Shown piece by piece: positions 1-49,365 of a stretch of DNA of 64,000 bases. Position numbers and translations under genes: made by a program. Each line of letters begins with the position of its first letter. Position 1 is the stretch's first letter. Source of the stretch: an uncultured Acidobacteriota bacterium (GTDB taxonomy: Bacteria > Acidobacteriota > Vicinamibacteria > Fen-336); assembly GCA_964574335.1 (NCBI GenBank), contig CAZNNH010000004.1, positions 28,724 through 92,723 on the forward strand. Reading direction: 5' to 3'. The notes below the pieces were generated by a model. It was not told the origin of the DNA. It did no database searches and worked only from the letters and a program-made list of their open reading frames with translations.

Positions 1-849
1 GCTGGAAGCGCCCGAGACGACCTCGATGATCTCCTTGGTGATCGCCGCCTGGCGCACCTTGTTCATATGAAGGGTCAGCCGGTCGATCATCTCGGCGGCG
101 TTGTTGGTGGCCGCGTCCATCGCGGTCATCCGCGCCCCGTGCTCGGCGGCAATCGACTCCAGCAGCGCCCGATAGACCTGGGTCTCGACGTGGCGGGGCA
201 GCAGGCTTTCGAAGATCGCCTTGGGCGAAGGCTCGTAGATGTAGTCGAAGGCCGGCTGCGTCGGCTGCAACGATCGCTTCTCGATCGGCAGCAGCCGCTC
301 CGCCACCACCCGCTGCTGGATCACGCTCTTGAACTCGTTGAACACCAGGTGGATCTCGTCGAAACGATCGTCGATGAAGACCTCGATCAGCTCCCTGGCG
401 ATCCGCTGCGCGGTTGCGTAGCTCAGCGCCTGAAAGATCCCGACGTGCTCGCTGTGGACGCTCAGGTGGCGGCGCCGGAAGTGGTCGCGGCCCTTCCGGC
501 CCACCAGGCCGAGCTCGACCTTCTTGTCCCGGCGCTGGTCGATGATCCGCGAGGCGAGCCGGATGATGTTGGCGTTGAAGCCGCCACACAGCCCCTTGTC
601 GGCGGTGATCACCACCAGGAGCTGGCGCTCGTCGCCCTTCTCCTGCAGCAGCGGGTGGTACTCGGGCGCGGCGCGGGTGGCCATGCTGTTCAGCACCTGC
701 AGCATCAGACGGGCGTAGGGGCGCGCCGCGAAGATCGCCTCCTGGGCCCGGCGGAGCTTGGCGGCCGAGATCATCTTCATGGCCCGGGTGATCTGCTGCG
801 TGTTGCGCACGCTGCGGATCCGGCGTCGGATGTCGATCAGGGCGGGCAT
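1..849 (-). CDS. atpG: F0F1 ATP synthase gamma subunit. The C-terminus is cut by the window edge; the start is ATG at 847-849.
   Basis: Minus-strand translation begins MPALIDIRRRIRSVRNTQQITRAMKMISAAKLRRAQ and ends ...MNKVRQAAITKEIIEVVSGASS, running off position 1. This is the canonical gamma-subunit N- and C-terminus. The + strand ORF 67..891 is an antisense artefact. Confidence 0.9.
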   Translation of the reverse strand, partial: MPALIDIRRRIRSVRNTQQITRAMKMISAAKLRRAQEAIFAARPYARLMLQVLNSMATRAAPEYHPLLQEKGDERQLLVVITADKGLCGGFNANIIRLASRIIDQRRDKKVELGLVGRKGRDHFRRRHLSVHSEHVGIFQALSYATAQRIARELIEVFIDDRFDEIHLVFNEFKSVIQQRVVAERLLPIEKRSLQPTQPAFDYIYEPSPKAIFESLLPRHVETQVYRALLESIAAEHGARMTAMDAATNNAAEMIDRLTLHMNKVRQAAITKEIIEVVSGASS

Positions 850-859
850 CTTTGGAGGC

Positions 860-2377
<1,518 letters not shown>

Positions 2378-2435
2378 AGACTCTCCGACCCGCGGCGGGC
2401 GCGCCGCGGGAGCTAGCTTCCCACCACCTCGAGCG

Positions 2436-2993
2436 TCATCGGCCGGGCGCCTCTTCCAGGAGCCGTTGGCGCAGGAGCTGGAGGCGCCCGCGCAAGCTCC
2501 CGTCGTAGACACGTCCGGCGAGGCTCAGCCGGAGGCTACCCAGAAGCCCAGGCTCCACACGGTAGCTGAGCTCGACCGGCTTTCCGGCCAGCCGCTCGAC
2601 CGCCGCATGGATGGCCGACGCTTGGCCTTCGTCGAGGGCCATCGCCGACGCCACCTCCGCCGACAGCACGCCTCGGTGCTGGTTCCACGCCTGGCCGTAC
2701 GCCTTGTTGATGGCCGGCAACAGCCGGAGCCGGTTCCGTCCCGCCAGAAGCACCAGCAGCCGCACCAGGAGCGGTCGGCCCCGGCCCTCCCAAACCGCCT
2801 CGACCAGCCGCCGCTTCTTGTCGGCGGTCAACGCCGGATGGCCCAAGGCCACGCCGAGCTCGGCGTGCTGCTCCAACACCGAAACGGCCCGTTGGAGCTC
2901 CGCCCGCAGCCCCTCGGCCTCCCCTGAGGCCAGGGCCAAGTCGAGCAGCGCCCGCGCGTAACGTCGGGCGGCGCCGGTCTCGGTCTTCCTCAC
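2436..2993 (-). CDS. atpH: F0F1 ATP synthase delta (OSCP) subunit
   Basis: A 185-aa protein whose length and profile ([20 protein letters not shown]...) match OSCP/delta. It lies immediately upstream of atpA. Confidence 0.85.
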
Positions 2994-3089
2994 GGTCGCT
3001 CCGCGCCGGCTCGGCGAGGTGGTCTCAGGCGGAAGGGCACGGGATCGATCCCTTGTGGCCGCCCCGGGCGCGGGGCGAAAAAACGCTGC

Positions 3090-3118
3090 AGGTTAGCATG
3101 GGGTCCGAGACGAGTCAA
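3090..3118 (-). promoter_or_regulatory. Candidate sigma-70 promoter for atpH-atpA-atpG. On the minus strand the -35 is TTGACT (3113-3118), followed by a 17-nt spacer and a -10 TAACCT (3090-3095).
   Basis: Read directly from the sequence. The -35 is perfect and the -10 is weak. It lies 95 nt upstream of the atpH start in an otherwise GC-rich spacer. Confidence 0.3.
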
Positions 3119-3158
3119 AATGCTCGATCGGCGTCGACCCTATATACAACAAGGTATC

Positions 3159-3524
3159 CTATGGCTGCTTCGGCTCGGGGGCCGGACCGGGCCCACCCAT
3201 GTCGCAGTCACCCTGGAACAGGGCCCCCTCTTCGATCAACAGGCGGGGGGTCACCAGGGTCGCCTGAACCCGGGAGCCGGACAGCAGCTCGATCCGCTGG
3301 CGGCCCCGCACGTGCCCCTTGACGCTGCCCCGGATCGAGACCACCCCGCAATCGATCTCGGCCTCCACCGTCCCCGCCTCTCCGACGATCAGCGTGTTCT
3401 CGGAGACCACCCGGCCCCTGATGTGGCCGTCCACCCGGAACGTGTTTCGGAAACGGAGCTCTCCGAGGAACTCGCTGCCCTGATCCATGAAGCCGTTCAG
3501 CTCCTCGACCGCCTTGCCTCTCAT
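3159..3524 (-). CDS. Bactofilin (DUF583 beta-helical cytoskeletal protein), 121 aa
   Basis: This is the C-terminal 121 aa of track ORF 3159..4247, starting at ATG 3522-3524. Repeats LIVGEAGTVEAEIDCGVVSIRGSVKGHVRG...LIEEGALFQGDCDM match the bactofilin consensus (compare Caulobacter BacA ...SIEQGAYFEG). The upstream part of the track ORF is an out-of-frame overlap with parB. Confidence 0.8.
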   Translation of the reverse strand: MRGKAVEELNGFMDQGSEFLGELRFRNTFRVDGHIRGRVVSENTLIVGEAGTVEAEIDCGVVSIRGSVKGHVRGRQRIELLSGSRVQATLVTPRLLIEEGALFQGDCDMGGPGPAPEPKQP

Positions 3525-3550
3525 GGTCGGACCCCCGCGGTCATCACCGG

Positions 3551-37644: not shown

Positions 37645-37919
37645 GCCAGGGTCGGACCGGCCTCCGCGGGAGCGCCTTCCAGGTCTGCGCGGGCCCGTAG
37701 ACTCCGCGATACCCCCTGTCCAGCCACAAGGACACTACGTTAGTCCTCCAGGACACTGGCATGATAGGGGGAGGGCTCGAATTCTCCGGTCGTCTGAGGG
37801 CTGGCTGCCAGCCTGGGAGGCCGAGAGGACCACCAGGGGGGCCAAAGGGGGCGCGGACCTTGACAGGCAGGGGTCGGCTCTTACAATGGGTGCCCCTCGG
37901 AGGGCTGGGAAGGGAGCCG

Positions 37920-38978
37920 TTGGACCAGATCCAGGAGTTGCTCACCGTGGCGCTATTGCCCGATGTCGGGCCGCGCTGCGCCCGCGAGCTCCTCCAGCGG
38001 GGGCCGATCAGCGACCTGCTCGCACACCCGGAGGAGCACCGCGACCTTCTGCCGGAGGCGGCGCGGCGCCAGCTCGCCTCGGGCGCCGCGGCGCGACGGG
38101 CCGACGAGGAAGCCTCCCGTGCCCGCCGATCGGGCCTGTGTCTGCTCGGCCGGGGCTCCGACGGCTATCCTCGGCGCTTGGCCCGGATCTACGACCCTCC
38201 CCTGGTACTCTACGTGTGGGGCCACCTGGAGCCCGAGGAAGGAGAGACGAGCCTGGCGATCGTGGGCTCCCGAGCCGCCTCGCCCCCGGGAAGATCGCTG
38301 GCGCGCCGCATCGCGCGGGAGCTGGCGGCGGGCGGGGTGAGCGTCGTCTCCGGGTTGGCGCGAGGCATCGACACCGCCGCCCATCAGGGAGCGCTGGATG
38401 CCAGAGGCCGTACCATCGCCGTGTTGGGATGCGGTCTCGACCGGGTCTACCCCCCCGAGAACGCGGGGCTGGCGGCACAGGTGGCGGCATCCGGCGCCGT
38501 GGTGTCGGAGTTCCCGCTCGGGACCCCACCGCTGCCGGGCCATTTCCCCCGTCGCAACCGTCTCATCGCGGGATGGGGCCGCGGTGTGTTGGTGGTCGAG
38601 GCAGCCGCCCGCAGCGGCGCGCTCGGTACCGTCCGCTGCGCCCTCGAAGAGGGTCGCGAGGTGATGGCCGTGCCGGGCCACCCGACCAGTCGTGGCTCCG
38701 AGGGGGTCAACGCGCTGATCCGCGACGGGGCGACGCTGGTCCGAGACGCCGGCGACGTCGCGGCCGAGCTGGGCGTCAGCCTGGACCAGGGCGAGCCGTC
38801 GTGCGCCGAGGGGCAGCCGTTGCTCGAGCTGCTGCGGCCGGGCGCCCCGATGAGCCTGGAGGCGTTGCGGGAGCAGAGCGGGATGCAGGTGCCGGAGCTT
38901 CTGGCCAGGCTGGGAGCGCTCGAGCTTCTGGCGCGGGTGGAGCGTCTGCCGGGACCCCTGTTCGTGAGGATGACCTAG
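37920..38978 (+). CDS. dprA: DNA-processing protein DprA (Smf)
   Basis: Rossmann-like DprA core (LAIVGSRAASPPGRSLARRIA...GIDTAAHQGAL...RNRLIAGW). The proposed TTG start at 37920 has a GGAAGGGAG RBS. Track ORF 37761..38978 carries a low-complexity N-terminal extension that is unlikely to be real. Confidence 0.8.
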   Translation: MDQIQELLTVALLPDVGPRCARELLQRGPISDLLAHPEEHRDLLPEAARRQLASGAAARRADEEASRARRSGLCLLGRGSDGYPRRLARIYDPPLVLYVWGHLEPEEGETSLAIVGSRAASPPGRSLARRIARELAAGGVSVVSGLARGIDTAAHQGALDARGRTIAVLGCGLDRVYPPENAGLAAQVAASGAVVSEFPLGTPPLPGHFPRRNRLIAGWGRGVLVVEAAARSGALGTVRCALEEGREVMAVPGHPTSRGSEGVNALIRDGATLVRDAGDVAAELGVSLDQGEPSCAEGQPLLELLRPGAPMSLEALREQSGMQVPELLARLGALELLARVERLPGPLFVRMT

Positions 38979-39031: not shown

Positions 39032-41476
39032 GTGGCGAAGAACCTCGTTGTCGTCGAGTCGCCGGCCAAGGCGAAGACCATCAACCGGTACTTGGGCCGG
39101 GGCTACGTGGTCAAGGCCTCCATGGGCCACGTGCGCGACCTGCCCAAGAAGTCGCTGGGCGTGGACGTGGACCAGGGCTTCAGACCGGAATACGAGACGC
39201 TGCCCGGGCGCACGAAGGCCCTGGACGAGATCAAGGCCGCCGCCAAGGACGCGGCCACGATCTTCCTCGCCGCCGACCCGGACCGGGAAGGGGAAGCGAT
39301 CTGCTGGCACATCGCCGAGTCGCTCGGCGCCGCCGCCAAGAAGAAGGTGCGGCGAGTGGTCTTCAACGAGATCACCAAGCGCGCCATCGACGAGGCCTTC
39401 ACCCACCCCGGCCAGCTCGACGCCCGCAAGATCGACGCCCAGCAGGCGCGCCGGATCCTCGATCGCCTGGTCGGCTACAAGGTCAGCCCGATCCTCTGGG
39501 AGAAGGTGAGGCGCGGCCTGTCGGCCGGCAGGGTCCAGTCGGTCGCCCTTCGCCTGATCTGCGACCGAGAGCGCAAGATCCGGGCCTTTCGCCCCGAGGA
39601 GTACTGGACGGTCACCGCCCATCTCGACGCCGAGCAGCCGCCCCGTTTCACCGCCGAGCTGGTCAAGAAGCGGGGCCAGGCGATCGAGGTCGGCAGCGCC
39701 GACGAGGCCGCCGCCGTCCGCCGTGATCTGGAAGGCGCCGAGCTCGCCGTGGCCGAGGTCCAGGCCCGCACCCGCAAGCGGCACCCGGTACCTCCCTTCA
39801 TCACCTCGAAGCTGCAGCAGGAGGCGTTCAAGCGCCTGCGCTTTTCGGTGCGCAAGACCATGCAGGTGGCCCAGCGCCTCTACGAGGGCATCGAGCTCGG
39901 CGACGAAGGCAGCGTCGGCCTGATCACGTACATGCGTACCGACTCGACCCGCGTCTCGGAGGAGGCGCTCGAGGCGGTGCGCAAGCTCATCGCCGGCACG
40001 TACGGGGAGGAGCACCTCCCTCCAAAGCCCGTCCTACACCGCGCCAAGAAGGACGCCCAGGACGCCCACGAGGCGGTGCGTCCCACCGACCTCGACCACG
40101 ACCCGGAGACCATCAAGCGGTTCCTCTCCAAGGACGAGCTCGCGCTGTACAAGCTGATCTGGAACCGCTTCGTGGCATCCCAGATGAAGCCGGCGGTGTA
40201 CGACGAAACCCTGGTCGACGTCGCGGCAGGAGACTATCTGCTGCGGGCTCGCGGCGCGGTCCTGAAGTTCCGGGGGTTCCTTGCGGTCTACGAGGAGGCC
40301 CCCGACGAGAACGCAGCGTCCGCGAAGGCCATGGCGGAGGGCTCGGAGCAGCCCTCGGTCACCAAGGCCCCGCTGCCGCCGCTGCAGGCGGGCGACCGGC
40401 TGAAGCTCTTCCAGCTCGACACCGACCAACACTTCACCCAGCCCCCTCCGCACTTCAGCGAGGCGAGCCTGGTCAAGGAGCTCGAGGAGAACGGCATCGG
40501 CCGTCCCTCCACCTACGCCAGCATCATCGCCACCATCGAAGCTCGGGAGTACATGGAGAAGCGGGAGCGGCGCCTCTACCCCACCGAGCTCGGCTTCGTG
40601 GTCAGCGACCTCCTGGTCGAGCATTTCTCGGACATCGTGAACGTCGAGTACACCGCCGCCATGGAGGGGGAGCTCGACGAGATCGAGGAGGGGACCGACA
40701 ACCTCCTCAACACCCTCAACCAGTTCTGGAAGAAGTTCAAGCGCGACCTCAAGAAAGCGCAGAAGGAGATGAAGGACGTCAAGCGCCTCGAGGAGCAGAC
40801 CGACGAGGTGTGCGACAAGTGCGGCTCGGCGATGGTCATCAAGTGGGGGCGCTACGGCAAGTTCCTGGCCTGCTCCAGCTACCCCAAGTGCCGGAACACC
40901 CGCCAGCTCGAGGGGGGCGAGGGCACGGACGTGCCGGAGCTGCACGAGGACGTCGCCAAGGAGGTCTGTCCCCAGGACGGCCAGCCGATGGTGCTCAAGA
41001 AGGGGCGCTACGGGCCGTTCCTGGCCTGCAGCCGCTACCCGGACTGCCGTACCACCAAGCGGCTGGTTCGGGGCGAGGGCGGCAAGCTGCAGGTGGAGAC
41101 CCTGGCCCCGATCGACGAAAAATGCCCCGAGTGCGGGGCCGACCTGATGTGGCGCCGGGGCCGCTTCGGAGCCTTCATCGCCTGCAGCAGCTACCCGAAC
41201 TGCCGCTACGTGAAGGGCAAGGAGGCCAAGGAGATCGGCTTGCTCTGTCCGGACTGCGGCGAGGGGCAGGTGGTCGAGCGCAAGGGCCGCTGGGGCCGCC
41301 CCTTCTACGGGTGCAAGCGCTACCCCGCATGCACCTTCACCGCCTACCACCGGCCGCTGGCGGAGCCCTGCCCCGAGTGTGGCAGCCCGTATCTGCTGAT
41401 GAAGGAGACCAAGAAGGAGGGGAAGGTGGTCTTCTGCGCCAACGAGAGCTGCCACTACAGGCGGCAGGCAGCCTGA
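39032..41476 (+). CDS. topA: DNA topoisomerase I with four C-terminal C4 zinc ribbons
   Basis: An 814-aa protein with a TOPRIM N-terminus (MAKNLVVVESPAKAKTI), active-site Tyr region, and four CxxC...CxxC ribbons. Confidence 0.95.
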   Translation: MAKNLVVVESPAKAKTINRYLGRGYVVKASMGHVRDLPKKSLGVDVDQGFRPEYETLPGRTKALDEIKAAAKDAATIFLAADPDREGEAICWHIAESLGAAAKKKVRRVVFNEITKRAIDEAFTHPGQLDARKIDAQQARRILDRLVGYKVSPILWEKVRRGLSAGRVQSVALRLICDRERKIRAFRPEEYWTVTAHLDAEQPPRFTAELVKKRGQAIEVGSADEAAAVRRDLEGAELAVAEVQARTRKRHPVPPFITSKLQQEAFKRLRFSVRKTMQVAQRLYEGIELGDEGSVGLITYMRTDSTRVSEEALEAVRKLIAGTYGEEHLPPKPVLHRAKKDAQDAHEAVRPTDLDHDPETIKRFLSKDELALYKLIWNRFVASQMKPAVYDETLVDVAAGDYLLRARGAVLKFRGFLAVYEEAPDENAASAKAMAEGSEQPSVTKAPLPPLQAGDRLKLFQLDTDQHFTQPPPHFSEASLVKELEENGIGRPSTYASIIATIEAREYMEKRERRLYPTELGFVVSDLLVEHFSDIVNVEYTAAMEGELDEIEEGTDNLLNTLNQFWKKFKRDLKKAQKEMKDVKRLEEQTDEVCDKCGSAMVIKWGRYGKFLACSSYPKCRNTRQLEGGEGTDVPELHEDVAKEVCPQDGQPMVLKKGRYGPFLACSRYPDCRTTKRLVRGEGGKLQVETLAPIDEKCPECGADLMWRRGRFGAFIACSSYPNCRYVKGKEAKEIGLLCPDCGEGQVVERKGRWGRPFYGCKRYPACTFTAYHRPLAEPCPECGSPYLLMKETKKEGKVVFCANESCHYRRQAA

Positions 41477-41535: not shown

Positions 41536-42882
41536 ATGGACCGCCAGGTCACGATCGTCGGGGGCGGGCTGGCGGGCGCCGAGGCGGCCTGGCAACTGGC
41601 TCGCCGCGGCGTGTCGGTCCGCCTGCTCGAGATGCGCCCGCAACGCTCGACGCCGGCGCATCGGACGGACCTGCTCGCGGAGCTCGTCTGCTCCAACAGC
41701 CTGCGGGGCAACGCCCTCGAGCAGCCGGCCGGACTGCTCAAGGAGGAGATGCGCCGTCTCGACTCCCTGATCGTCCGAGTCGCCGACCAGGTCCGGGTGC
41801 CGGCGGGCAGCGCGCTGGCGGTCGACCGGGCCCGGTTTGCCGAGGGAGTGACCGCCGCCCTGCGGGCCCGACCCGAGGTGCAGATCGAGCGTCGTGAGGT
41901 CGACCGTATCCCCGAAGGGGCGGTGGTGGTGCTCGCTACCGGACCCCTCACCGCGGACACCCTGGCCCAGGACATCGCCGCCTTCGTCGGCGAGTCGCAC
42001 CTGTACTTCTTCGACGCCATCAGCCCGGTGGTGGAGACCGAGAGCATCGACACCCACCGGACGTTCCGCGCCTCCCGCTACGGTCGGGGAGGCGACGACT
42101 ACCTCAACTGCCCGATGAGCGAGGGAGAGTACCGGGCCTTCCTCGCGGAGTTGCTGGCGGCCGAGCCGGCCACCCTCCACGACTTCGAGCGCGGGCTCTT
42201 CTTCGAAGGTTGCCTGCCGATCGAGGTGCTGGCCCACCGGGGGCCCGAGGCGCTTCTGTTTGGGCCCCTCAAGCCCGTCGGGCTCGTCGACCCGCGAACC
42301 GGTCGCCGCCCGTTCGCCGTGGTCCAGCTCCGTCAGGACGACCTGGCCGCCAGCCATCACTCGATGGTCGGCTTCCAGACCCAGATCCGGTGGGGCGAGC
42401 AGGCGCGGGTGTTCCGGATGATCCCAGGCCTCGAGCAGGCCGAGTTCATCCGCTTCGGGACGGTCCACCGCAACACCTACGTGAACGCTCCACGGATCCT
42501 GGACGCCACCTTCGAGAGCCGTCGTCGCCCCGGCCTGTTCCTCGCCGGACAGATGTCGGGAGTGGAGGGCTACGTGGAATCGGCGGCCTCCGGGCTAGTC
42601 GCCGGGGTCGGCGCCGCCGCCCGGATGCGGGGCCAGACCCCTCCGAGGTTCCCCGAGCAGACGGCCCTCGGAGCGCTGGGGCGGCACGTCTCGGGCGGCA
42701 ACGCCCGCAACTACCAGCCCACCAACATCCAGTTTGGCCTATTGCCAGATCTTGGATTCCGCGTCCGCGAGAAGAAGGCTCGCCGTCAGGCGATCTCCCG
42801 ACGCGCCCTCGAGTCCCTGGACAGGTTCCGAGCCCAGGTGCTGGGCGAGGAGGGCCCCGAGGCCGGCCGGGCGGGCGGATGA
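41536..42882 (+). CDS. trmFO: Methylenetetrahydrofolate--tRNA-(uracil54-C5)-methyltransferase TrmFO (Gid)
   Basis: FAD-binding N-terminus MDRQVTIVGGGLAGAEAAWQLA and GidA-like fold. Length is 448 aa. Confidence 0.9.
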   Translation: MDRQVTIVGGGLAGAEAAWQLARRGVSVRLLEMRPQRSTPAHRTDLLAELVCSNSLRGNALEQPAGLLKEEMRRLDSLIVRVADQVRVPAGSALAVDRARFAEGVTAALRARPEVQIERREVDRIPEGAVVVLATGPLTADTLAQDIAAFVGESHLYFFDAISPVVETESIDTHRTFRASRYGRGGDDYLNCPMSEGEYRAFLAELLAAEPATLHDFERGLFFEGCLPIEVLAHRGPEALLFGPLKPVGLVDPRTGRRPFAVVQLRQDDLAASHHSMVGFQTQIRWGEQARVFRMIPGLEQAEFIRFGTVHRNTYVNAPRILDATFESRRRPGLFLAGQMSGVEGYVESAASGLVAGVGAAARMRGQTPPRFPEQTALGALGRHVSGGNARNYQPTNIQFGLLPDLGFRVREKKARRQAISRRALESLDRFRAQVLGEEGPEAGRAGG

Positions 42883-43760
42883 AGCGCGCGCTGGCCGCCT
42901 TTGTCCGTCACCTCGAGGCGGAGCGCAACCTGTCTCCCCATACGACCAAGGCGTATCGGGAGGATCTCGAGCAGTTCGTGGCCCACGCCGCCTCGTCCCT
43001 TGGCCGCTCGCCGCGCCCGGCCGAGATCGACCACCTGATGATCCGGAGCTTTCTGGCCCGGCTCCACGCGCGCGGCCTCAAGAAGACCACGACGGGCCGG
43101 AAGCTGGCGGCCATTCGGACCTTCTTTCGCTTCCTCTGCCGCGAAGGACAGCTCCAGACGAATCCCAGCCGGGCCCTGCTCTCGCCCCGCCAGGAGCGGC
43201 GCATCCCGAGCCGGCTGGAGGAAAGTGAGGTGGCGGACCTGCTGGACATCCCCCAGAAGGGAAGAGCGGCCATCAAAGCTCGCGCCCTTCTGGAGCTGCT
43301 CTACTCCACAGGAATCCGGTGCGCCGAGCTGGTGGGGCTGGATCTCGATGACGTGGATCGCGACGCCCGCATGCTCAGGGTTCTGGGCAAAGGCAGAAAA
43401 GAGCGCATCGTTCCCTTCGGCAGTCGCGCCCTCCAGGCACTGACAGAGTACCTCCCGATCCGGGCCGCCACCCACCCGAGGACGGACGCCCTCTTCGTGA
43501 ACCCACAGGGAGAGAGGCTCACGGACCGCGGAGTGAGGTACATCGTGGCTCGCCGGGTGAGGCAGGTGGCGGCACGCAAGAAGATCAGTCCCCACACCCT
43601 CCGTCACAGCTTCGCCACCCACCTGCTCGAAAGAGGTGCCGACCTCCGCGCCATCCAGGAGCTTCTCGGCCACGCCAGCCTCTCTACAACCCAGCGGTAC
43701 ACCCACGTAGACGCCCGGCATCTTCTGGCGATATACAGAAAGACCCACCCACGCGCTTGA
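42879..43760 (+). CDS. xerC: Tyrosine recombinase XerC/XerD (CodV-like chromosome dimer resolution)
   Basis: The true ATG at 42879 overlaps the trmFO stop (ATGA). The catalytic residues R...HxxR...Y are present (HTLRHSFATHLLERGADLRAIQELLGHASLSTTQRYTH). Confidence 0.9.
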   Translation: MKRALAAFVRHLEAERNLSPHTTKAYREDLEQFVAHAASSLGRSPRPAEIDHLMIRSFLARLHARGLKKTTTGRKLAAIRTFFRFLCREGQLQTNPSRALLSPRQERRIPSRLEESEVADLLDIPQKGRAAIKARALLELLYSTGIRCAELVGLDLDDVDRDARMLRVLGKGRKERIVPFGSRALQALTEYLPIRAATHPRTDALFVNPQGERLTDRGVRYIVARRVRQVAARKKISPHTLRHSFATHLLERGADLRAIQELLGHASLSTTQRYTHVDARHLLAIYRKTHPRA

Positions 43761-43837
43761 TCGCCGCCTGCCAGGACTCAGCCCAACGAGTCGAGCCGTC
43801 CACAAGCGGGGGAAGAGCGTCCTATCATTCAAGGCCG

Positions 43838-44437
43838 ATGGCGCCCAGTGATGAGCAGCTCGTTCAGGCGGCGCAGTCTGGGGACAGTGCCGCCTTCGGC
43901 CAGCTCGTGGATCGGTGGGATCGGAAGATCCGGGGCGCCATCTACCGTGTCCTGGGCTCGGACGACGAGGCCCGGGACCTGACCCAGGAGGCGTTCTTCA
44001 AGGCGTACCGAGGGCTTCCGTCGTTCAAGCAGGAGGCCCGCTTCTCCTCCTGGCTGTACCAGATCGCGCTCAATCTCTGTCGCGACCGGATGCGGCGCAA
44101 GAGAGGCCGCATCCACATGAGCCTGGAAGAGCTCGAGCTTGCCGGATCGGCCCGCCTGATCGAGAGCGGGCCCTCCGTCCAGGAGATGGCCGAGGCCGGC
44201 GAGCTGTCGCGGGTCGTGGCCACGGCAGTTGCGGCGCTGCCTGCCGAGCAGCGCGAGGTGATCGTGCTCAAGGAGTACCAGGAGCTGACCTTCGCGGAGA
44301 TCGCGGAGGTGCTGGCTCTCCCGGTATCGACCGTCAAGACCCGCCTGTATCGAGGCCTCGGGCAGCTTCGCCAGAGCCTCGAACGGCGTGGCATCCACGG
44401 CTCGACGGCGTTACCGCGAGCTTCCGGAGAATCCTGA
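43838..44437 (+). CDS. ECF sigma factor
   Basis: ATG 43838 with an AAGG RBS. Region 2 (DLTQEAFFKAYRGL...WLYQIALNLCRDRMR) and region 4 (LTFAEIAEVLALPVSTVKTRL) are present. Confidence 0.85.
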   Translation: MAPSDEQLVQAAQSGDSAAFGQLVDRWDRKIRGAIYRVLGSDDEARDLTQEAFFKAYRGLPSFKQEARFSSWLYQIALNLCRDRMRRKRGRIHMSLEELELAGSARLIESGPSVQEMAEAGELSRVVATAVAALPAEQREVIVLKEYQELTFAEIAEVLALPVSTVKTRLYRGLGQLRQSLERRGIHGSTALPRASGES

Positions 44438-45060
44438 TGGACTGCAGCGAGGTGCGAGACCAGATGCTCGACGTGCTCTACGGCGAGGCCGACGCCGACA
44501 TCCGGCGTCGCGTCGAGGAGCACCACGCCCAGTGCCCGGCCTGTCGGCACGAGCTCGAGGCGCTCCGCGGGGTGCGCCGCGCTCTTGCCCAGTGGCGCAT
44601 CCCGGAAAGACGATCTGTCCATGCCTTCCGCCTCGGCTGGCTGGCAGCCGCCGCCGTCCTGCTGGTGTCGCTGGGCGCCGCCTTGGGGCTTTCCGGGTCG
44701 GAGGTACGTTTCGAGAATGGCCGCCTGGCCTTCAGGCTCGGGCGCAGCGACGTCGAAAGCCGGCTCGCCGAGCAGGAGGCCCGCCACCGCACGGAGATGG
44801 CCCGCCTCCGCAGCGAGCTAGCGACGCGCGACAGCCTGCTGGCGGAGGTCGACCAGCGGCTGCGTGCCAGCGAGGCCCGGCAGGCGGCGCTGCTGAGCGC
44901 GGGCCTCAGCGAGCTGACCGCCCGCAACGAGGCCCAGCGACGATACGACCTGGCCCGGGTCAGCGCCAGCCTCTCCTATCTCGATGGGCGCACTGGCCAG
45001 CAACTGGCCCGGCAGACGGAGCTGATGGGCTATCTGTTGCAGGCCTCCGACCAGCGATGA
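44437..45060 (+). CDS. Anti-sigma factor with a zinc-finger (HxxxCxxC) and one TM segment
   Basis: MDCSEVRDQMLDVLYGEADADIRRRVEEHHAQCPACRHELEAL, then TM AFRLGWLAAAAVLLVSLGAALGL, then a periplasmic coiled coil. Its ATG overlaps the sigma stop (ATGA). Confidence 0.75.
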   Translation: MDCSEVRDQMLDVLYGEADADIRRRVEEHHAQCPACRHELEALRGVRRALAQWRIPERRSVHAFRLGWLAAAAVLLVSLGAALGLSGSEVRFENGRLAFRLGRSDVESRLAEQEARHRTEMARLRSELATRDSLLAEVDQRLRASEARQAALLSAGLSELTARNEAQRRYDLARVSASLSYLDGRTGQQLARQTELMGYLLQASDQR

Positions 45061-46073
45061 GCCGAAAGCCCACCCTCGTTCTCCTTGCCCTCGCTCTGGC
45101 GGCACCCTCCTGGGCGCAGACGGACGCCGCCCTGCGTGACCAGCTCGAGGGCTTCGGCGAAGCCCTCGATCGAGCGGTCCAGGCGGTCAGCCGACCCGGC
45201 ACCCTCCATGTCCTGAGTGGGGAGCACACCAGCCGAGGCTTCTACCTCAAGGGGTACGGTGCGGTCTTCACGCTCCCCCCCCGTGCCCTGCCACCCACCC
45301 AGCCGCCGCGCCCGCTCGAGACCTCTCGGGGCAAGGCCTCCGGGTCGTTGGTCCGGGCCATGCAGGAGGTCGAGGGCAGCCTGGACGAAGACCCGTCCGA
45401 GCCGATACGCCAGCTCCTGGAGAGTCGGCTGCGGGAGCTCGGCCCGTCCCAGAGCGCTGCCGTCTCCGAGCCGACGAGACCCACCGACGCCGCCCAGCCC
45501 CCGACTCCCCCTGACTGGGCGGCGTTGCAGGCCCGCCTCGAGGCCCGCAAGCAGATCGAGCGCCAGCGCGACCAGCAGCTCCACACCCTCGAGGTGCAGA
45601 TCGAGGCGTTCCAGCGGGACGCCGAGCGGATGCGGGAGCAGGCCGAGCGTCACATGGAGGAGCTGCGCCGGCAGATCAAGACGCGGGCCGTCTTTGCCAA
45701 GCAGGCGACCCCTCCCCCCTCACTCCCTCCATCCCCGCCCGCGAGCGTCCTGCCGGCGCCGCCCTGGAGCTTCTGGTTCGAGGTGTCCTCCGAGGCCGAG
45801 ACCCAGCCGCGCTCCCAGGAAGCCGTGGTTGAAAGCGTGCGGGCTGCCGTAACCGGGGTGGTCGAGAAGGAGGGCGGGCGGCTTGCGATGCTCGCCCCGG
45901 AGGAGTCGGTGGTGGTGGCGGTGGACTTCGTCCCTCCCGACGTCTTCGTGCCACGGCTTCGGCCGGAGCGAACGCTGGTGGTTCGGGTCAAGAAGAAGGA
46001 GATCGACGCCTACCGCGCCGGCCGGCTCGGTGCCGAGGAACTGGGCCGCCGTCTGGAGGTCGTCGAGTACTGA
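45057..46073 (+). CDS. Secreted hypothetical protein (coiled-coil, Pro-rich), translationally coupled to the anti-sigma factor
   Basis: ATGA overlap with the upstream gene. Signal peptide MSRKPTLVLLALALAAPSWAQT. No known domain was found. Confidence 0.5.
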   Translation: MSRKPTLVLLALALAAPSWAQTDAALRDQLEGFGEALDRAVQAVSRPGTLHVLSGEHTSRGFYLKGYGAVFTLPPRALPPTQPPRPLETSRGKASGSLVRAMQEVEGSLDEDPSEPIRQLLESRLRELGPSQSAAVSEPTRPTDAAQPPTPPDWAALQARLEARKQIERQRDQQLHTLEVQIEAFQRDAERMREQAERHMEELRRQIKTRAVFAKQATPPPSLPPSPPASVLPAPPWSFWFEVSSEAETQPRSQEAVVESVRAAVTGVVEKEGGRLAMLAPEESVVVAVDFVPPDVFVPRLRPERTLVVRVKKKEIDAYRAGRLGAEELGRRLEVVEY

Positions 46074-46148
46074 GGGGCGGCGCCGCATCGTTGACCCCAG
46101 CCGAGGGCCGCCCCTATACTGAGGCCCCTCCCGAAGGGTAACCGTCCT

Positions 46149-46691
46149 ATGGCCTCCTCCCTCGACCTCCACGGAACCACGATCCTGGCGGTCCGTCACG
46201 CCGGCGGCTGTGCGATCGCCGGAGACGGGCAGGTGACCCTGGGCCAGACCGTCGTCAAACACACCGCCCGGAAGATCCGGCGGCTCCACAACGGCCAGGT
46301 GCTGGCCGGCTTCGCCGGCTCCACCGCCGACGCCCTGGCGCTGTTCGCCAAGTTCGAGGCCAAGATCGACGAGCACCGCGGCAACCTCGAGCGCGCCGCG
46401 GTGGAGCTGTCCAAGGACTGGCGCACCGACCGCGTCCTGCGCCGGCTCGAGGCCTTCCTGGTGGCGCTGGATCGGGACTCGGCCTTCCTGCTTTCGGGGG
46501 CCGGCGACGTGATCACGCCCGACGACGGGCTCCTGGCAGTGGGTAGCGGCGGCCCATTTGCCCTGGCCGCCGCCCGGGCCCTGGCCCGCCACACCACGCT
46601 CGATGCCGGCACGCTGGCCCTCGAGGCGATGAAGATCGCCGCCGGGATCTGCGTCTACACCAACGAGACCATCCTGGTGGAGACGCTCTAG
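46149..46691 (+). CDS. hslV: ATP-dependent protease subunit HslV (ClpQ)
   Basis: [30 protein letters not shown]..., the N-terminal Thr protease. Confidence 0.93.
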
Positions 46692-48097
46692 TGCCGATCC
46701 AGCTTCCGGCGTCGAGCCAGGAGCTCCACGACCTCGACCAGCTCACCCCACGACAGATCGTGGCCGAGCTCGACCGCTACGTGATCGGCCAAGACCAGGC
46801 CAAGCGGGCGGTGGCGATCGCCCTGCGAAACCGGGTGCGCCGTCAACGGCTCCCGCCGGAGCTGGCCACCGAGATCACCCCCCGCAACATCCTCATGATC
46901 GGCCCCACCGGGGTGGGCAAGACCGAGATCGCCCGGCGGCTGGCGCGGATGTCGAGCAGCCCTTTCGTCAAGGTCGAGGCATCCAAGTTCACCGAGGTCG
47001 GCTACGTGGGACGCGACGTCGAGTCGATCATCCGGGACCTCGTCGAAGCTGCCGTCCACCTGGTGCGCCGCGAGCGGCGGGCCGAGGTCCAGGACCGGGC
47101 CCGGCAGAATGTCGAGGAGCAGCTCCTCGACCTGCTGCTGCCGCCGCTTCGATCGCGACCGGCAGAGACGGCCGGTGCCGACGCCGAAGCGGCCGCATCC
47201 TCGCCCACCGAGTCCTTTCGGACCACACGGGAGCGCCTCCGCGCCCAGCTCCGGGCCGGCGAGCTCGACGCCCGCACCGTCGAGGTGGATGTCCCGCAGC
47301 GGAGCTTCCCCACCTTCCAGGTGATGAGCTCCCAGGGCGTCGAGGAGATGGACATCAACGTCAAGGACCTCCTGCCCGGGATCTTCGGCGGTCGCACCAA
47401 GCGCCGCACGTTGCCCGTCTCGGAGGCCCGCGAGGTCCTGCTCCGGGAGGAGGAGAACCGACTGGTGGACACCGAGCAGGTCTCCCGCCAGGCGGTGGAG
47501 CGAGCCCAGAGCTCGGGCATCGTCTTCCTGGACGAGATCGACAAGGTGGCGGGTCGCGAGGGCAGCCATGGGCCAGAGGTCTCGCGCGAAGGCGTCCAGC
47601 GCGACATCCTTCCCATCGTCGAGGGCACCACCGTTACCACCAAGCATGGCGCCGTGCGCACCGACCACATCCTCTTCATCGCCGCCGGGGCGTTCCACGT
47701 CTCGAAGCCCAGCGACCTGATCCCGGAGCTCCAGGGGCGCTTCCCGATCCGGGTCGAGCTCGCGTCCCTCTCCCGCGAAGACCTGCACCGGATCCTGACC
47801 GAGCCACGCAACGCCCTGCTCTCGCAGCACCAGGCGCTGCTCAAGACCGAGGGGCTGGAGCTCGACTTCGCCCCCGACGCGATCGCCGAGATCGCTCGCT
47901 TCGCCGCTGAGGTCAACGACGCCGCCGAGAACATCGGGGCCCGGCGGCTCGCCACCGTGCTCGAACGCCTGCTGGACGAAGTCTCCTTCGAAGGTCCAGC
48001 GGAGAGCCCTCGTCAGGTGCACATCGATGCCGAGGAGGTGCGCCGCAAGTTGGCCCCCCTGGTCAAGGACCAGGACCTCAGTCGCTTCATCCTGTGA
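46691..48097 (+). CDS. hslU: ATP-dependent protease ATPase subunit HslU (ClpY)
   Basis: ILMIGPTGVGKTEIARRLA (Walker A). It has a GTG start abutting the hslV stop. Confidence 0.93.
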   Translation: MPIQLPASSQELHDLDQLTPRQIVAELDRYVIGQDQAKRAVAIALRNRVRRQRLPPELATEITPRNILMIGPTGVGKTEIARRLARMSSSPFVKVEASKFTEVGYVGRDVESIIRDLVEAAVHLVRRERRAEVQDRARQNVEEQLLDLLLPPLRSRPAETAGADAEAAASSPTESFRTTRERLRAQLRAGELDARTVEVDVPQRSFPTFQVMSSQGVEEMDINVKDLLPGIFGGRTKRRTLPVSEAREVLLREEENRLVDTEQVSRQAVERAQSSGIVFLDEIDKVAGREGSHGPEVSREGVQRDILPIVEGTTVTTKHGAVRTDHILFIAAGAFHVSKPSDLIPELQGRFPIRVELASLSREDLHRILTEPRNALLSQHQALLKTEGLELDFAPDAIAEIARFAAEVNDAAENIGARRLATVLERLLDEVSFEGPAESPRQVHIDAEEVRRKLAPLVKDQDLSRFIL

Positions 48098-49365
48098 TGC
48101 GCCGCCGATTCTCCGCCGTCGCCCTCTGCGGCTGGCTCGCCGTCGGCCTGGCCAGCCCCGGCTGCGGAAAGCGCGGCGACCCGCTGCCCCCCATCGACCG
48201 CACCCCCCAGCCGGTGACCGACCTGAGCCTGGCCCAGCGAGGGGACCAGGTGGAGGTCCACTTCGCCGCCCCGCGCGCCACGGTGGAGGGGGACCGCCTG
48301 CCGGTGCTCGAGGTGGAGCTGTGGCGGGCCGACACCGACGGCGTCGACGTAGCGCAGTACAAGCGGCTGAAGGTGGCACCCGGTGAGCGGCTCGTGGAGA
48401 CCGAGCCCCGGCCCGCGCCCGGAACCACGCTTCGCTATGCCGCCCGCGCCCGGGTCGGCCGCGACCTCTCGCCGTACACCCGAGTGGTGGCGCTGAAGGT
48501 CCAGGAGCCGCCGGCCATCCCCCAGGACTTCGAGGCGGAGCTGCGTGCCGACGGTGTGATCCTGTCGTGGACACCGCCACCGCTGCCCGAATGGCTGACC
48601 GCGCCGGAGCCGGCCGAGGCAGAGGGCCCCGAAGAGGGCGAGGCGGTTGCGCCCGTTCCCCCGACCCCGCCGACCCCGTCGCCAGCGGCCGAGCCGACCA
48701 CACCCGCGGCGACTCCGGATCAGGCGGGACTGGCAACGGCCCCGATCAGCCCCGCCTCGGTCGCCAGCGAAGGGGGGGAGCCGCCGGCCGAGAAGGGCCC
48801 GGAGGGCGAGGAGCCGGCACTGGAGGCGGGCCCGAAGAAACCCGCTGCCGCGGCCAAGCCGACCCCCGAGCCGTTCCGCGGCGGCGTCAACGTCTATCGA
48901 CGCTCAGGATTCGCGGGCTACTCTCAGCCGCTCAACCCGACACCGATCGCCATCGACAAGTACCTCGACGCCGATCCGCCGATGAACGCCGAGACCTGCT
49001 ACGTCCTGCGCACCATCGTCTCCACTGACCCGACCGTGGAGAGCGCGGCTTCCAAGGAGCTGTGCCTCCAGGTACGCGACATCGTGGCTCCGGCGGCCCC
49101 GATCGGTGTTGCCGTGAGGATCGCCGAGGACCGTCTCGAGATCACCTGGAGCGCCTCCGGGGAGGCGGACCTGGCGTTGTACCGGGTCTATTGCAGCGAG
49201 GGTGAGGGTCCCGCGGTACCGGTTGCCGACGTTCCCGGTGGGACGACCGTGCTCTACGAGAGCCTACCGGCCGAATCGGGAGCCCTCGTCTACACCGTGA
49301 CCGCCATCGACACGGCCGGCAACGAGAGCCCGCCTTCAGCCCCTGCCCCGGTACGACTTCCCTGA
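48094..49365 (+). CDS. Lipoprotein or secreted protein with fibronectin-III-like domains and a Pro/Ala/Glu-rich linker
   Basis: Signal peptide MMRRRFSAVALCGWLAVGLASPGC. FN3-like strands (VILSWTPPP, LEITWSAS...YRVYCSE...YTVTAIDTAGNES). Its start overlaps the hslU stop (ATGA). Confidence 0.55.
   Translation: MMRRRFSAVALCGWLAVGLASPGCGKRGDPLPPIDRTPQPVTDLSLAQRGDQVEVHFAAPRATVEGDRLPVLEVELWRADTDGVDVAQYKRLKVAPGERLVETEPRPAPGTTLRYAARARVGRDLSPYTRVVALKVQEPPAIPQDFEAELRADGVILSWTPPPLPEWLTAPEPAEAEGPEEGEAVAPVPPTPPTPSPAAEPTTPAATPDQAGLATAPISPASVASEGGEPPAEKGPEGEEPALEAGPKKPAAAAKPTPEPFRGGVNVYRRSGFAGYSQPLNPTPIAIDKYLDADPPMNAETCYVLRTIVSTDPTVESAASKELCLQVRDIVAPAAPIGVAVRIAEDRLEITWSASGEADLALYRVYCSEGEGPAVPVADVPGGTTVLYESLPAESGALVYTVTAIDTAGNESPPSAPAPVRLP

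Follow-up and report, generated by a model that had tools for sequence, protein, structure and literature searches.

The window analysed here is a 64,000-nucleotide stretch of contig CAZNNH010000004.1 (assembly GCA_964574335.1), obtained from an uncultured bacterium of the Vicinamibacteria (Acidobacteriota), and it carries three consecutive genes between xerC and hslV that are described below as a probable envelope-signalling operon. All genes considered are encoded on the forward strand, and the GC content of the window is approximately 69%. The trio consists of a gene for an extracytoplasmic function (ECF, group 4) sigma factor of 199 amino acids that resembles SigW and RpoE (43838-44437), a gene for a single-pass membrane anti-sigma factor of 207 amino acids that belongs to the zinc-binding anti-sigma (ZAS) type with a Cys-His-Cys-Cys (CHCC) motif (44437-45060), and a gene for a secreted protein of 338 amino acids from an uncharacterised family, designated protein X (45057-46073). 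An earlier note on this DNA had proposed the presence of these three genes at this site, which is confirmed, and its assignments of the sigma factor, the zinc-finger anti-sigma factor and the secreted coiled-coil protein stood up in profile searches and in the long helix predicted for protein X. Upstream, the trio is flanked by the tyrosine recombinase gene xerC (42879-43760), the product of which matches Pfam Phage_integrase and Phage_int_SAM_1 and is a XerC proper according to the TIGR02224 recomb_XerC equivalog model (345.3 bits, cut-off 335.15). Downstream, and outside the module, lie hslV (46149-46691; Pfam Proteasome) and hslU (46691-48097; Pfam AAA_2 and ClpB_D2-small).

The sigma factor scored 61.1 bits with Sigma70_r2, 58.9 bits with Sigma70_r4_2 and 22.6 bits with Sigma70_ECF (cut-off 21.1), as well as 110 bits with TIGR02937 (cut-off 42.9), and it contains only the sigma-2 and sigma-4 domains within its 199 residues, as is expected of an ECF (group 4) member. 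The best equivalog models were both those of SigW, namely NF007223 (147.5 against a cut-off of 209) and TIGR02948 (135 against 243.1), and because both scores remained below the cut-off, the protein is considered SigW-like rather than a SigW orthologue. The closest solved structure was that of Bacillus subtilis SigW (5wuq, E=6e-33), followed by 6in7, which is annotated as RNA polymerase sigma-H factor and which we take to be AlgU, and then by Escherichia coli RpoE (1or7). Literature on ECF sigma factors in Vicinamibacteria was searched for, and nothing was found.

The anti-sigma factor matched zf-HC2 with 31.6 bits (cut-off 22.2) and contains the zinc motif C3...H29-x3-C33-x2-C36, which fits the C/H-x(23-26)-H-x3-C-x2-C pattern of the ZAS proteins. 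In alignments of 35 and 48 homologues, H29, C33 and C36 were invariant and C3 was nearly so (at least 90% conserved among the 48). The protein is predicted to bind zinc and the sigma factor, the gene of which is adjacent to its own. The AlphaFold2 (AF2) model, with a mean predicted local distance difference test (pLDDT) score of 81, contains helices at residues 3-14, 20-32, 34-52, 67-86, 104-183 and 187-206, corresponding to a cytoplasmic three-helix domain (3-52), a transmembrane helix (approximately 67-86), a periplasmic helix of 80 residues (104-183), and a terminal helix (187-206). The predicted topology thereby agrees with the RsiW type of anti-sigma factor, which has one transmembrane segment (here the hydrophobic stretch of approximately residues 62-86, including helix 67-86) and an extracytoplasmic C-terminal domain (here approximately 120 residues). 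The C-terminal stretch of approximately 45 amino acids (AQRRYDLARVSAGLSYLDGRTGQQLARTNELMGYVLQAS) was the most conserved periplasmic part in the homologue alignment. Moreover, the transmembrane helix is rich in alanine, with A72 invariant and A73 at least 90% conserved, which is suggestive, though only suggestive, of a site for intramembrane cleavage.

Protein X matched nothing in Pfam or NCBIfam, and none of the solved structures is related to it. The N-terminal signal peptide ends in an AxA-type cleavage site (..APSWA|QT) and lacks a lipobox. The pLDDT of the AF2 model is 76.8 overall and exceeds 90 in both terminal parts, and a globular alpha/beta domain is split between residues ~18-77 and ~254-338. 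The N-terminal part of this domain comprises a helix (18-44) and a hairpin (60-77), and the C-terminal part is an alpha-beta-beta-alpha-alpha-beta unit (254-338). The middle of the protein consists of variable helices and an inserted long helix of 63 residues (154-216) that has proline-rich linkers on either side, and the length of this coiled-coil and linker region varies strongly among homologues. The family comprises 788 cluster representatives at E <=1e-3; among the 150 best that were listed, most have a length of 270-400 amino acids. A word-indexed search returned 54 homologues, all of them from metagenomes or metagenome-assembled genomes (MAGs), and those that carry a name belong to Vicinamibacteria. 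All homologues of X end in ..(V/T/S)EY-COOH, the final tyrosine (residue 338; 46068-46070) being invariant in 35 sequences. This residue may belong to the last beta-strand of the fold or may be part of a C-terminal recognition signal; in the latter case the terminus (..VEY-COOH) could serve as a ligand for a PDZ-type protease.

Direct reading of the DNA showed that the anti-sigma and X genes overlap by ATGA (ATG 45057-45059, TGA 45058-45060), and that the sigma and anti-sigma genes overlap by a single nucleotide in TGATG (TGA 44435-44437, ATG 44437-44439). The ATGA overlap that had been proposed for every junction within the module thus holds for the second junction and not for the first. The last codons of the anti-sigma gene (AAG AGG TGA) provide a Shine-Dalgarno-like sequence, AAGAGGTGA, for X. 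The proposed overlap of the sigma open reading frame (ORF) with the xerC stop codon exists only if the ORF is read in its longest form, from TTG 43757. In alignments, homologues of the sigma factor begin at the position of ATG 43838, and a conserved promoter (43795-43825) lies inside the putative extension, so the 77-nucleotide spacer between xerC and the sigma gene is real. Among related loci, the gap between xerC and the sigma gene ranged from 41 to 3544 nucleotides and that between the sigma and anti-sigma genes was mostly +11 to +37 nucleotides, and the first ATG of X was positioned -4 to +5 nucleotides from the anti-sigma stop codon in 29 of 31 loci.

A candidate for the ECF-type promoter that the earlier note had suggested looking for upstream of 43838 was found as a bipartite motif, TGAG(G/A)C(C/T)(T/A)T...CGTC(A/C/T)nAA, which was present with fixed spacing upstream of the sigma gene in 50 distinct loci. 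The elements are separated by 16 nucleotides between C(C/T) and CGTC, and CGTC begins 16-29 (mostly 23) nucleotides before the ATG of the sigma gene. In 837 kb of related loci, matches of at least 14 bits numbered 47 upstream of the sigma gene and 4 in other places, and one of these 4 was located at a contig end, exactly where a sigma gene should begin. In the window, the predicted SigW-like promoter (43795-43825) consists of the -35 region GCCGTCCAC (43795-43803) and the -10 element CGTCCTAT (43818-43825), the latter starting 20 nucleotides before the ATG. Comparison with a relative of 80% identity (locus L108) showed that the promoter block is conserved and that the remainder of the spacer has diverged. 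An alternative -35 element, TCGAGCC (43789-43795; 22-nucleotide spacer), was rejected since it is not conserved in L108, whereas CCGTCC is. A GTC core in the -10 element is typical of ECF promoters, and the CGT-type -10 of the motif is shared with SigW. The -35 element of the motif, TGAGRCYWT, resembles the SigW -35 consensus TGAAACNTTT (T-G-A-A-A-C-N-T-T-T), also at the G, A and C that are contacted (PMC6713349).

The age of the trio was assessed in two sets of loci, one anchored on X (27 loci) and the other obtained by an unbiased scan of metagenome contigs anchored on XerC. In tblastn maps of all 27 X-anchored loci, the trio was located directly downstream of xerC wherever the locus was long enough, and the order xerC-sigma-anti-sigma-X was also retained around X homologues of only 32-37% identity. 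In the XerC-anchored scan, the sigma gene followed xerC in 29 of the 29 loci that had a XerC of at least 62% identity and enough downstream DNA, and none of the loci with a XerC of at most 53% identity contained the sigma gene, the anti-sigma gene or X. In the latter, which serve as outgroups, hslV overlaps or abuts xerC in 6 loci and elsewhere follows within ~30-260 nucleotides or after unrelated inserts. X and the anti-sigma gene occurred together in every locus examined, and X was never found without the sigma/anti-sigma pair in ~60 loci. When species-representative genomes were scanned with the alignment of X, 23 loci were obtained, all from Acidobacteriota/Vicinamibacteria MAGs, plus one 3.4-kb contig that had been binned as Hyphomicrobium. 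This contig (L011, CAXMOH010000096.1) carries sigma-anti-sigma-X-hslV in an arrangement nearly identical to that of the Vicinamibacteria locus L016/L054, and its assignment to a Hyphomicrobium MAG is probably a binning error. The GC content of the trio equals that of its flanks, as does its GC content at third codon positions (GC3; 0.84-0.87, compared to 0.82-0.94 in the neighbours), and its presence is not patchy, so that neither hallmark of a genomic island was found. The earlier note had described the module as inserted, and this description stands insofar as the outgroups have xerC and hslV adjacent or overlapping without the trio. It does not stand in the sense of a recent event: since all testable relatives have the trio in the same place, which is the finding that the note itself had named as a refutation, and its GC and GC3 are like those of its neighbours, the trio is ancestral to the clade. 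Taken together, the trio was acquired once at the xerC-hslV junction, in the ancestor of a Vicinamibacteria-type Acidobacteriota clade, and has since been vertically inherited and fixed.

Two known types of system offer a basis for comparison. SigW and RsiW of B. subtilis are an ECF sigma factor and an anti-sigma factor that is bound to the membrane and has a CHCC zinc domain, controlled by proteolysis through PrsW, RasP and ClpXP. The pair described here resembles them in that SigW ranks first for the sigma factor among solved structures and NCBIfam models alike, and in that the anti-sigma factor combines an N-terminal CHCC zinc domain with one transmembrane helix and an extracytoplasmic domain. 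In E. coli RpoE-RseA-RseB and Pseudomonas AlgU-MucA-MucB, a periplasmic protein binds the domain that the anti-sigma factor exposes in the periplasm, and gates cleavage at site 1. The gene logic of these systems, with a sigma factor, a single-pass anti-sigma factor and then a periplasmic protein, is also that of the trio, in which the role of X as a partner is inferred, and RpoE and AlgU (1or7 and 6in7) were among the best structure-library sequence matches for the sigma factor. RseA and MucA differ from the anti-sigma factor described here by the lack of a zinc motif, and RseB and MucB differ from X in sequence and fold. The zinc ligands of the anti-sigma factor, C3/H29/C33/C36, are placed almost identically to C3/H30/C34/C37 of RsiW (PMC5358783). 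The differences with SigW-RsiW comprise the scores of the sigma factor below the SigW equivalog cut-offs, the periplasmic domain, which here consists of a long helix whose conserved C-terminus is specific to the clade and in which no similarity to RsiW could be detected, the presence of a third, translationally coupled gene, and the diderm acidobacterial host. Moreover, no PrsW was identified here, although protease genes were not sought.

With moderate confidence, the region is interpreted as a self-contained three-gene envelope-signalling operon that encodes the sigma factor, the anti-sigma factor and X, the last as a partner that would gate the cleavage of the anti-sigma factor; confidence in the general architecture of the operon is high. 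By analogy with the SigW/RsiW (PMC5358783) and RpoE/RseA/RseB paradigms, the anti-sigma factor would, in the resting state, keep the sigma factor at the membrane by means of its cytoplasmic zinc domain. An envelope signal would then elicit regulated proteolysis, starting with a site-1 cut in the periplasmic domain of the anti-sigma factor, followed by a site-2 cut in its alanine-rich transmembrane helix (A72 invariant, A73 nearly so) and by degradation of the leftover fragment in the cytoplasm. The sigma factor thus released would transcribe its own operon, in a positive autoregulatory loop, as well as a further regulon. Translational coupling would keep the synthesis of X matched to that of the anti-sigma factor, and X would bind either the conserved C-terminal helix or the long periplasmic helix of this factor, thereby gating the site-1 cut in a role like that of RseB and MucB, exerted by an unrelated fold. 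We infer that X acts in the periplasm as a partner of the anti-sigma factor; that it binds the periplasmic part and gates its cleavage is the favoured but tentative role, at less than even odds. With similar reserve, X may define a new family of proteins that act in the periplasm as co-anti-sigma factors or sensors, so far encountered only in Vicinamibacteria-type Acidobacteriota, in which the long helical insert would pair with the 80-residue periplasmic helix and the C-terminal helix of the anti-sigma factor to gate regulated proteolysis by a fold unrelated to RseB.

Several observations weigh against this interpretation. No site-1 or site-2 protease was identified, although protease genes were not sought, and X resembles neither RseB/MucB nor any known co-anti-sigma factor in sequence or fold, the RseB/MucB domain (LolA-like fold) being absent from it. 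The -35 region in the window (GCCGTCC) matches the family consensus weakly, with a position weight matrix (PWM) score of 4.5. A search of the 64-kb window for further ECF promoter sites with the PWM and a degenerate pattern returned only the site upstream of the sigma gene, the pattern count being that expected by chance, and the window thus offers no second motif site from which to define a regulon. No canonical terminator was found after X in the window. Finally, the clade is delimited here from metagenome contigs and MAGs.

An alternative but rather unlikely role for X is that of an output rather than a regulator, i.e., a periplasmic stress or structural protein, such as a coiled-coil scaffold or a chaperone-like protein, that is co-transcribed as the first member of the regulon. 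ECF operons often include effector genes, and both the absence of similarity to known co-anti-sigma factors and the very variable length of the coiled coil and proline-rich linkers, as in spacer or structural proteins, would agree with such a role. However, the coupling of the anti-sigma stop to the X start is tight throughout the clade while all other junctions drift, X was not seen without the sigma/anti-sigma pair in any of ~60 loci, and the most conserved part of the anti-sigma factor outside its cytoplasmic domain is the periplasmic C-terminal segment, which would need a partner or ligand. An improbable reading is that the anti-sigma factor acts mainly as a cytoplasmic thiol/redox switch like RsrA, in which case oxidation of the CHCC motif would free the sigma factor, with a secondary role for X and the periplasmic part. 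The motif is conserved in full, down to its first cysteine, which is the redox sensor in RsrA (PMC5358783), and there is a weak match to the RsrA model TIGR03988 (28.1 bits, under the cut-off of 62.5). Against a redox switch are the membrane anchor, the conserved periplasmic domain of 120 amino acids and the dedicated periplasmic partner gene, as well as the precedent of RsiW, a membrane-bound CHCC protein that is insensitive to oxidation and controlled by proteolysis (PMC5358783). The suggestion that the trio is a recent mobile or horizontally transferred cassette, integrated beside a recombinase gene, draws on its position directly after a tyrosine recombinase gene and on the outgroups, which lack the trio and in several cases carry different inserts at the same junction. 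This reading is effectively refuted by the conserved synteny, with the trio at the same site in relatives of which X is only 30-40% identical, and retains hardly any probability: the recombinase is a bona fide XerC, there is no compositional shift, and no flanking repeats were noticed, although the flanks were not subjected to a dedicated repeat search.

The remaining alternative concerns the relation of the operon to hslVU, which the earlier note had placed in one transcript with the module, such that envelope-stress signalling and HslVU proteolysis would be co-regulated; in this scenario HslVU might degrade the released anti-sigma fragment. All genes are on the same strand, the gap between X and hslV is only 75 nucleotides and contains no canonical terminator, by which some read-through from X into hslV is possible in the window, and hslVU follows X in 18 of the 30 distinct trio loci with enough downstream DNA. 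This gap, however, contains a sigma-70-type promoter of hslVU, TTGACC-N18-TATACT (46091-46120), identified by a promoter scan and by conservation, in which 10 of 12 positions match (0.1 such sites being expected in shuffled sequences). Those relatives that have kept hslV share the -10 box (TATACT; GATGCT in L023) immediately ahead of it, and the sub-clade of the window also shares TTGACC, including loci in which other, opposite-strand genes lie between X and hslV. Such opposite-strand genes occur in 10 relatives (L003-L007, L026, L038, L047, L056 and L109). The ECF motif, which the note had suggested looking for upstream of hslV as well, was not found there in a motif scan of related loci. Moreover, hslVU is absent from the site in 12 of the 30 loci, where the trio is retained, and the adjacency of xerC and hslV is older than the trio. 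In view of the conserved ECF-type promoter at the sigma gene, the conserved sigma-70-type promoter at hslV, the opposite-strand genes and the loci without hslVU, co-regulation with HslVU is very unlikely, and the single transcript proposed for the module and hslVU is unsupported. The unbreakable unit is that of the sigma gene, the anti-sigma gene and X, with the junction between the latter two as the tightest, and hslVU is dispensable at the site. There is no sign of a functional tie to hslVU, and the adjacency appears as a historical accident of the insertion site.

Several further observations were made at the junction between X and hslV. An inverted repeat, GGGGCGGCG...GGCCGCCCC, forms a GC-rich hairpin at 46073-46116 (-28.3 kcal/mol, z=-2.05) that encloses the -35 box of hslV. 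This hairpin overlaps the hslV promoter, is not conserved in relatives, and could act as a weak terminator or by promoter occlusion. A scan of 42500-48500 with Rfam returned nothing relevant. The opposite-strand gene of the relatives is a small ORF (~120-139 amino acids, starting with about MSLKTLALVVSGVYDLLL) that stops a short way before the hslV promoter and does not occur in the window; it was located at 9023-9442 in L003, 1010-1375 in L004 and 8043-8429 in L109, and is also present in L005-L007, L026, L038, L047 and L056, where the gap is ~400-460 nucleotides. In the 12 loci without hslVU at the site (L008, L009, L010, L015, L020, L021, L022, L024, L025, L029, L040 and L045), X is directly followed by a gene for an fn3-like protein. 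In the window this gene (48094-49365; 423 amino acids, weak fn3 match) overlaps the hslU stop codon by 4 nucleotides, and throughout the clade it is conserved in its place after hslU or, in loci without hslVU, after X. The fn3-like protein is also weakly conserved (28-32% identity) in the outgroups L066, L070, L073, L075, L078 and L084, for which reason the hslVU-fn3 arrangement looks older than the trio.

The wider neighbourhood corresponds to the Bacillus-type synteny dprA(smf)-topA-trmFO(gid)-xerC(codV)-hslV(clpQ)-hslU(clpY). In the window, dprA (37761-38978), topA (39032-41476) and trmFO (41536-42882) precede xerC with order and strand unchanged, and in the outgroup loci xerC and hslV still overlap or abut in an operon-like manner. 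The block differs in this clade by the interruption by the trio, the separate promoter of hslV, and the absence of hslVU from 12 of 30 loci and of topA from some relatives. In a sub-clade (L010, L015, L020, L022, L025, L026, L034, L039, L040, L043, L051, L052 and L056) topA is missing between dprA and trmFO, which indicates that the block has been eroded on its upstream side as well. Outgroup inserts at the xerC-hslV junction that are unrelated to the trio were observed in L066/L069 (6882-8328), L070 (6903-9536), L084 (1751-4348), L101 and L104, one example consisting of an ORF of ~290 amino acids beginning M..DVALVT..LP.LDPDDRPL, followed by one of ~520 amino acids, and the junction thus appears to be a recurrent insertion site. 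In four loci of the clade (L015, 3086-6608; L020; L021; L025, 3047-6595) an insert of ~3.5 kb between xerC and the sigma promoter codes for a large protein of ~808 amino acids with a signal-like N-terminal sequence, present as a single long ORF in L025. Downstream of xerC in L036 (1220-1791), ~3 copies of a GC-rich repeat of ~150 bp (..GGGCGCCCACGCCAGTTCGTCTGCGGTCCT..GACCAGGGTTGGAGGGCTGC..) were found, which look like repetitive extragenic palindromic (REP) elements or miniature inverted-repeat transposable elements (MITEs); this contig stops before the sigma gene.

Because ECF sigma/anti-sigma pairs are common, the module is unsurprising in itself, and it has no bearing on any long-standing open question. 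It does illustrate cleanly how xerC and hslVU, a widely conserved pair, were split by an ancient insertion, after which the trio stayed and many lineages later lost hslVU there; in the 12 loci concerned the absence of hslVU was seen at the locus only, and may reflect loss or a move elsewhere. Moreover, the SigW-like promoter motif is well defined for an uncultured soil clade, and is usable for regulon prediction in complete Vicinamibacteria genomes. The novelty lies in the uncharacterised, clade-restricted third component of a SigW/RsiW-like system: an unnamed secreted family of ~800 cluster representatives that is always encoded beside the anti-sigma factor, and that is a candidate for a new type of periplasmic signalling partner.

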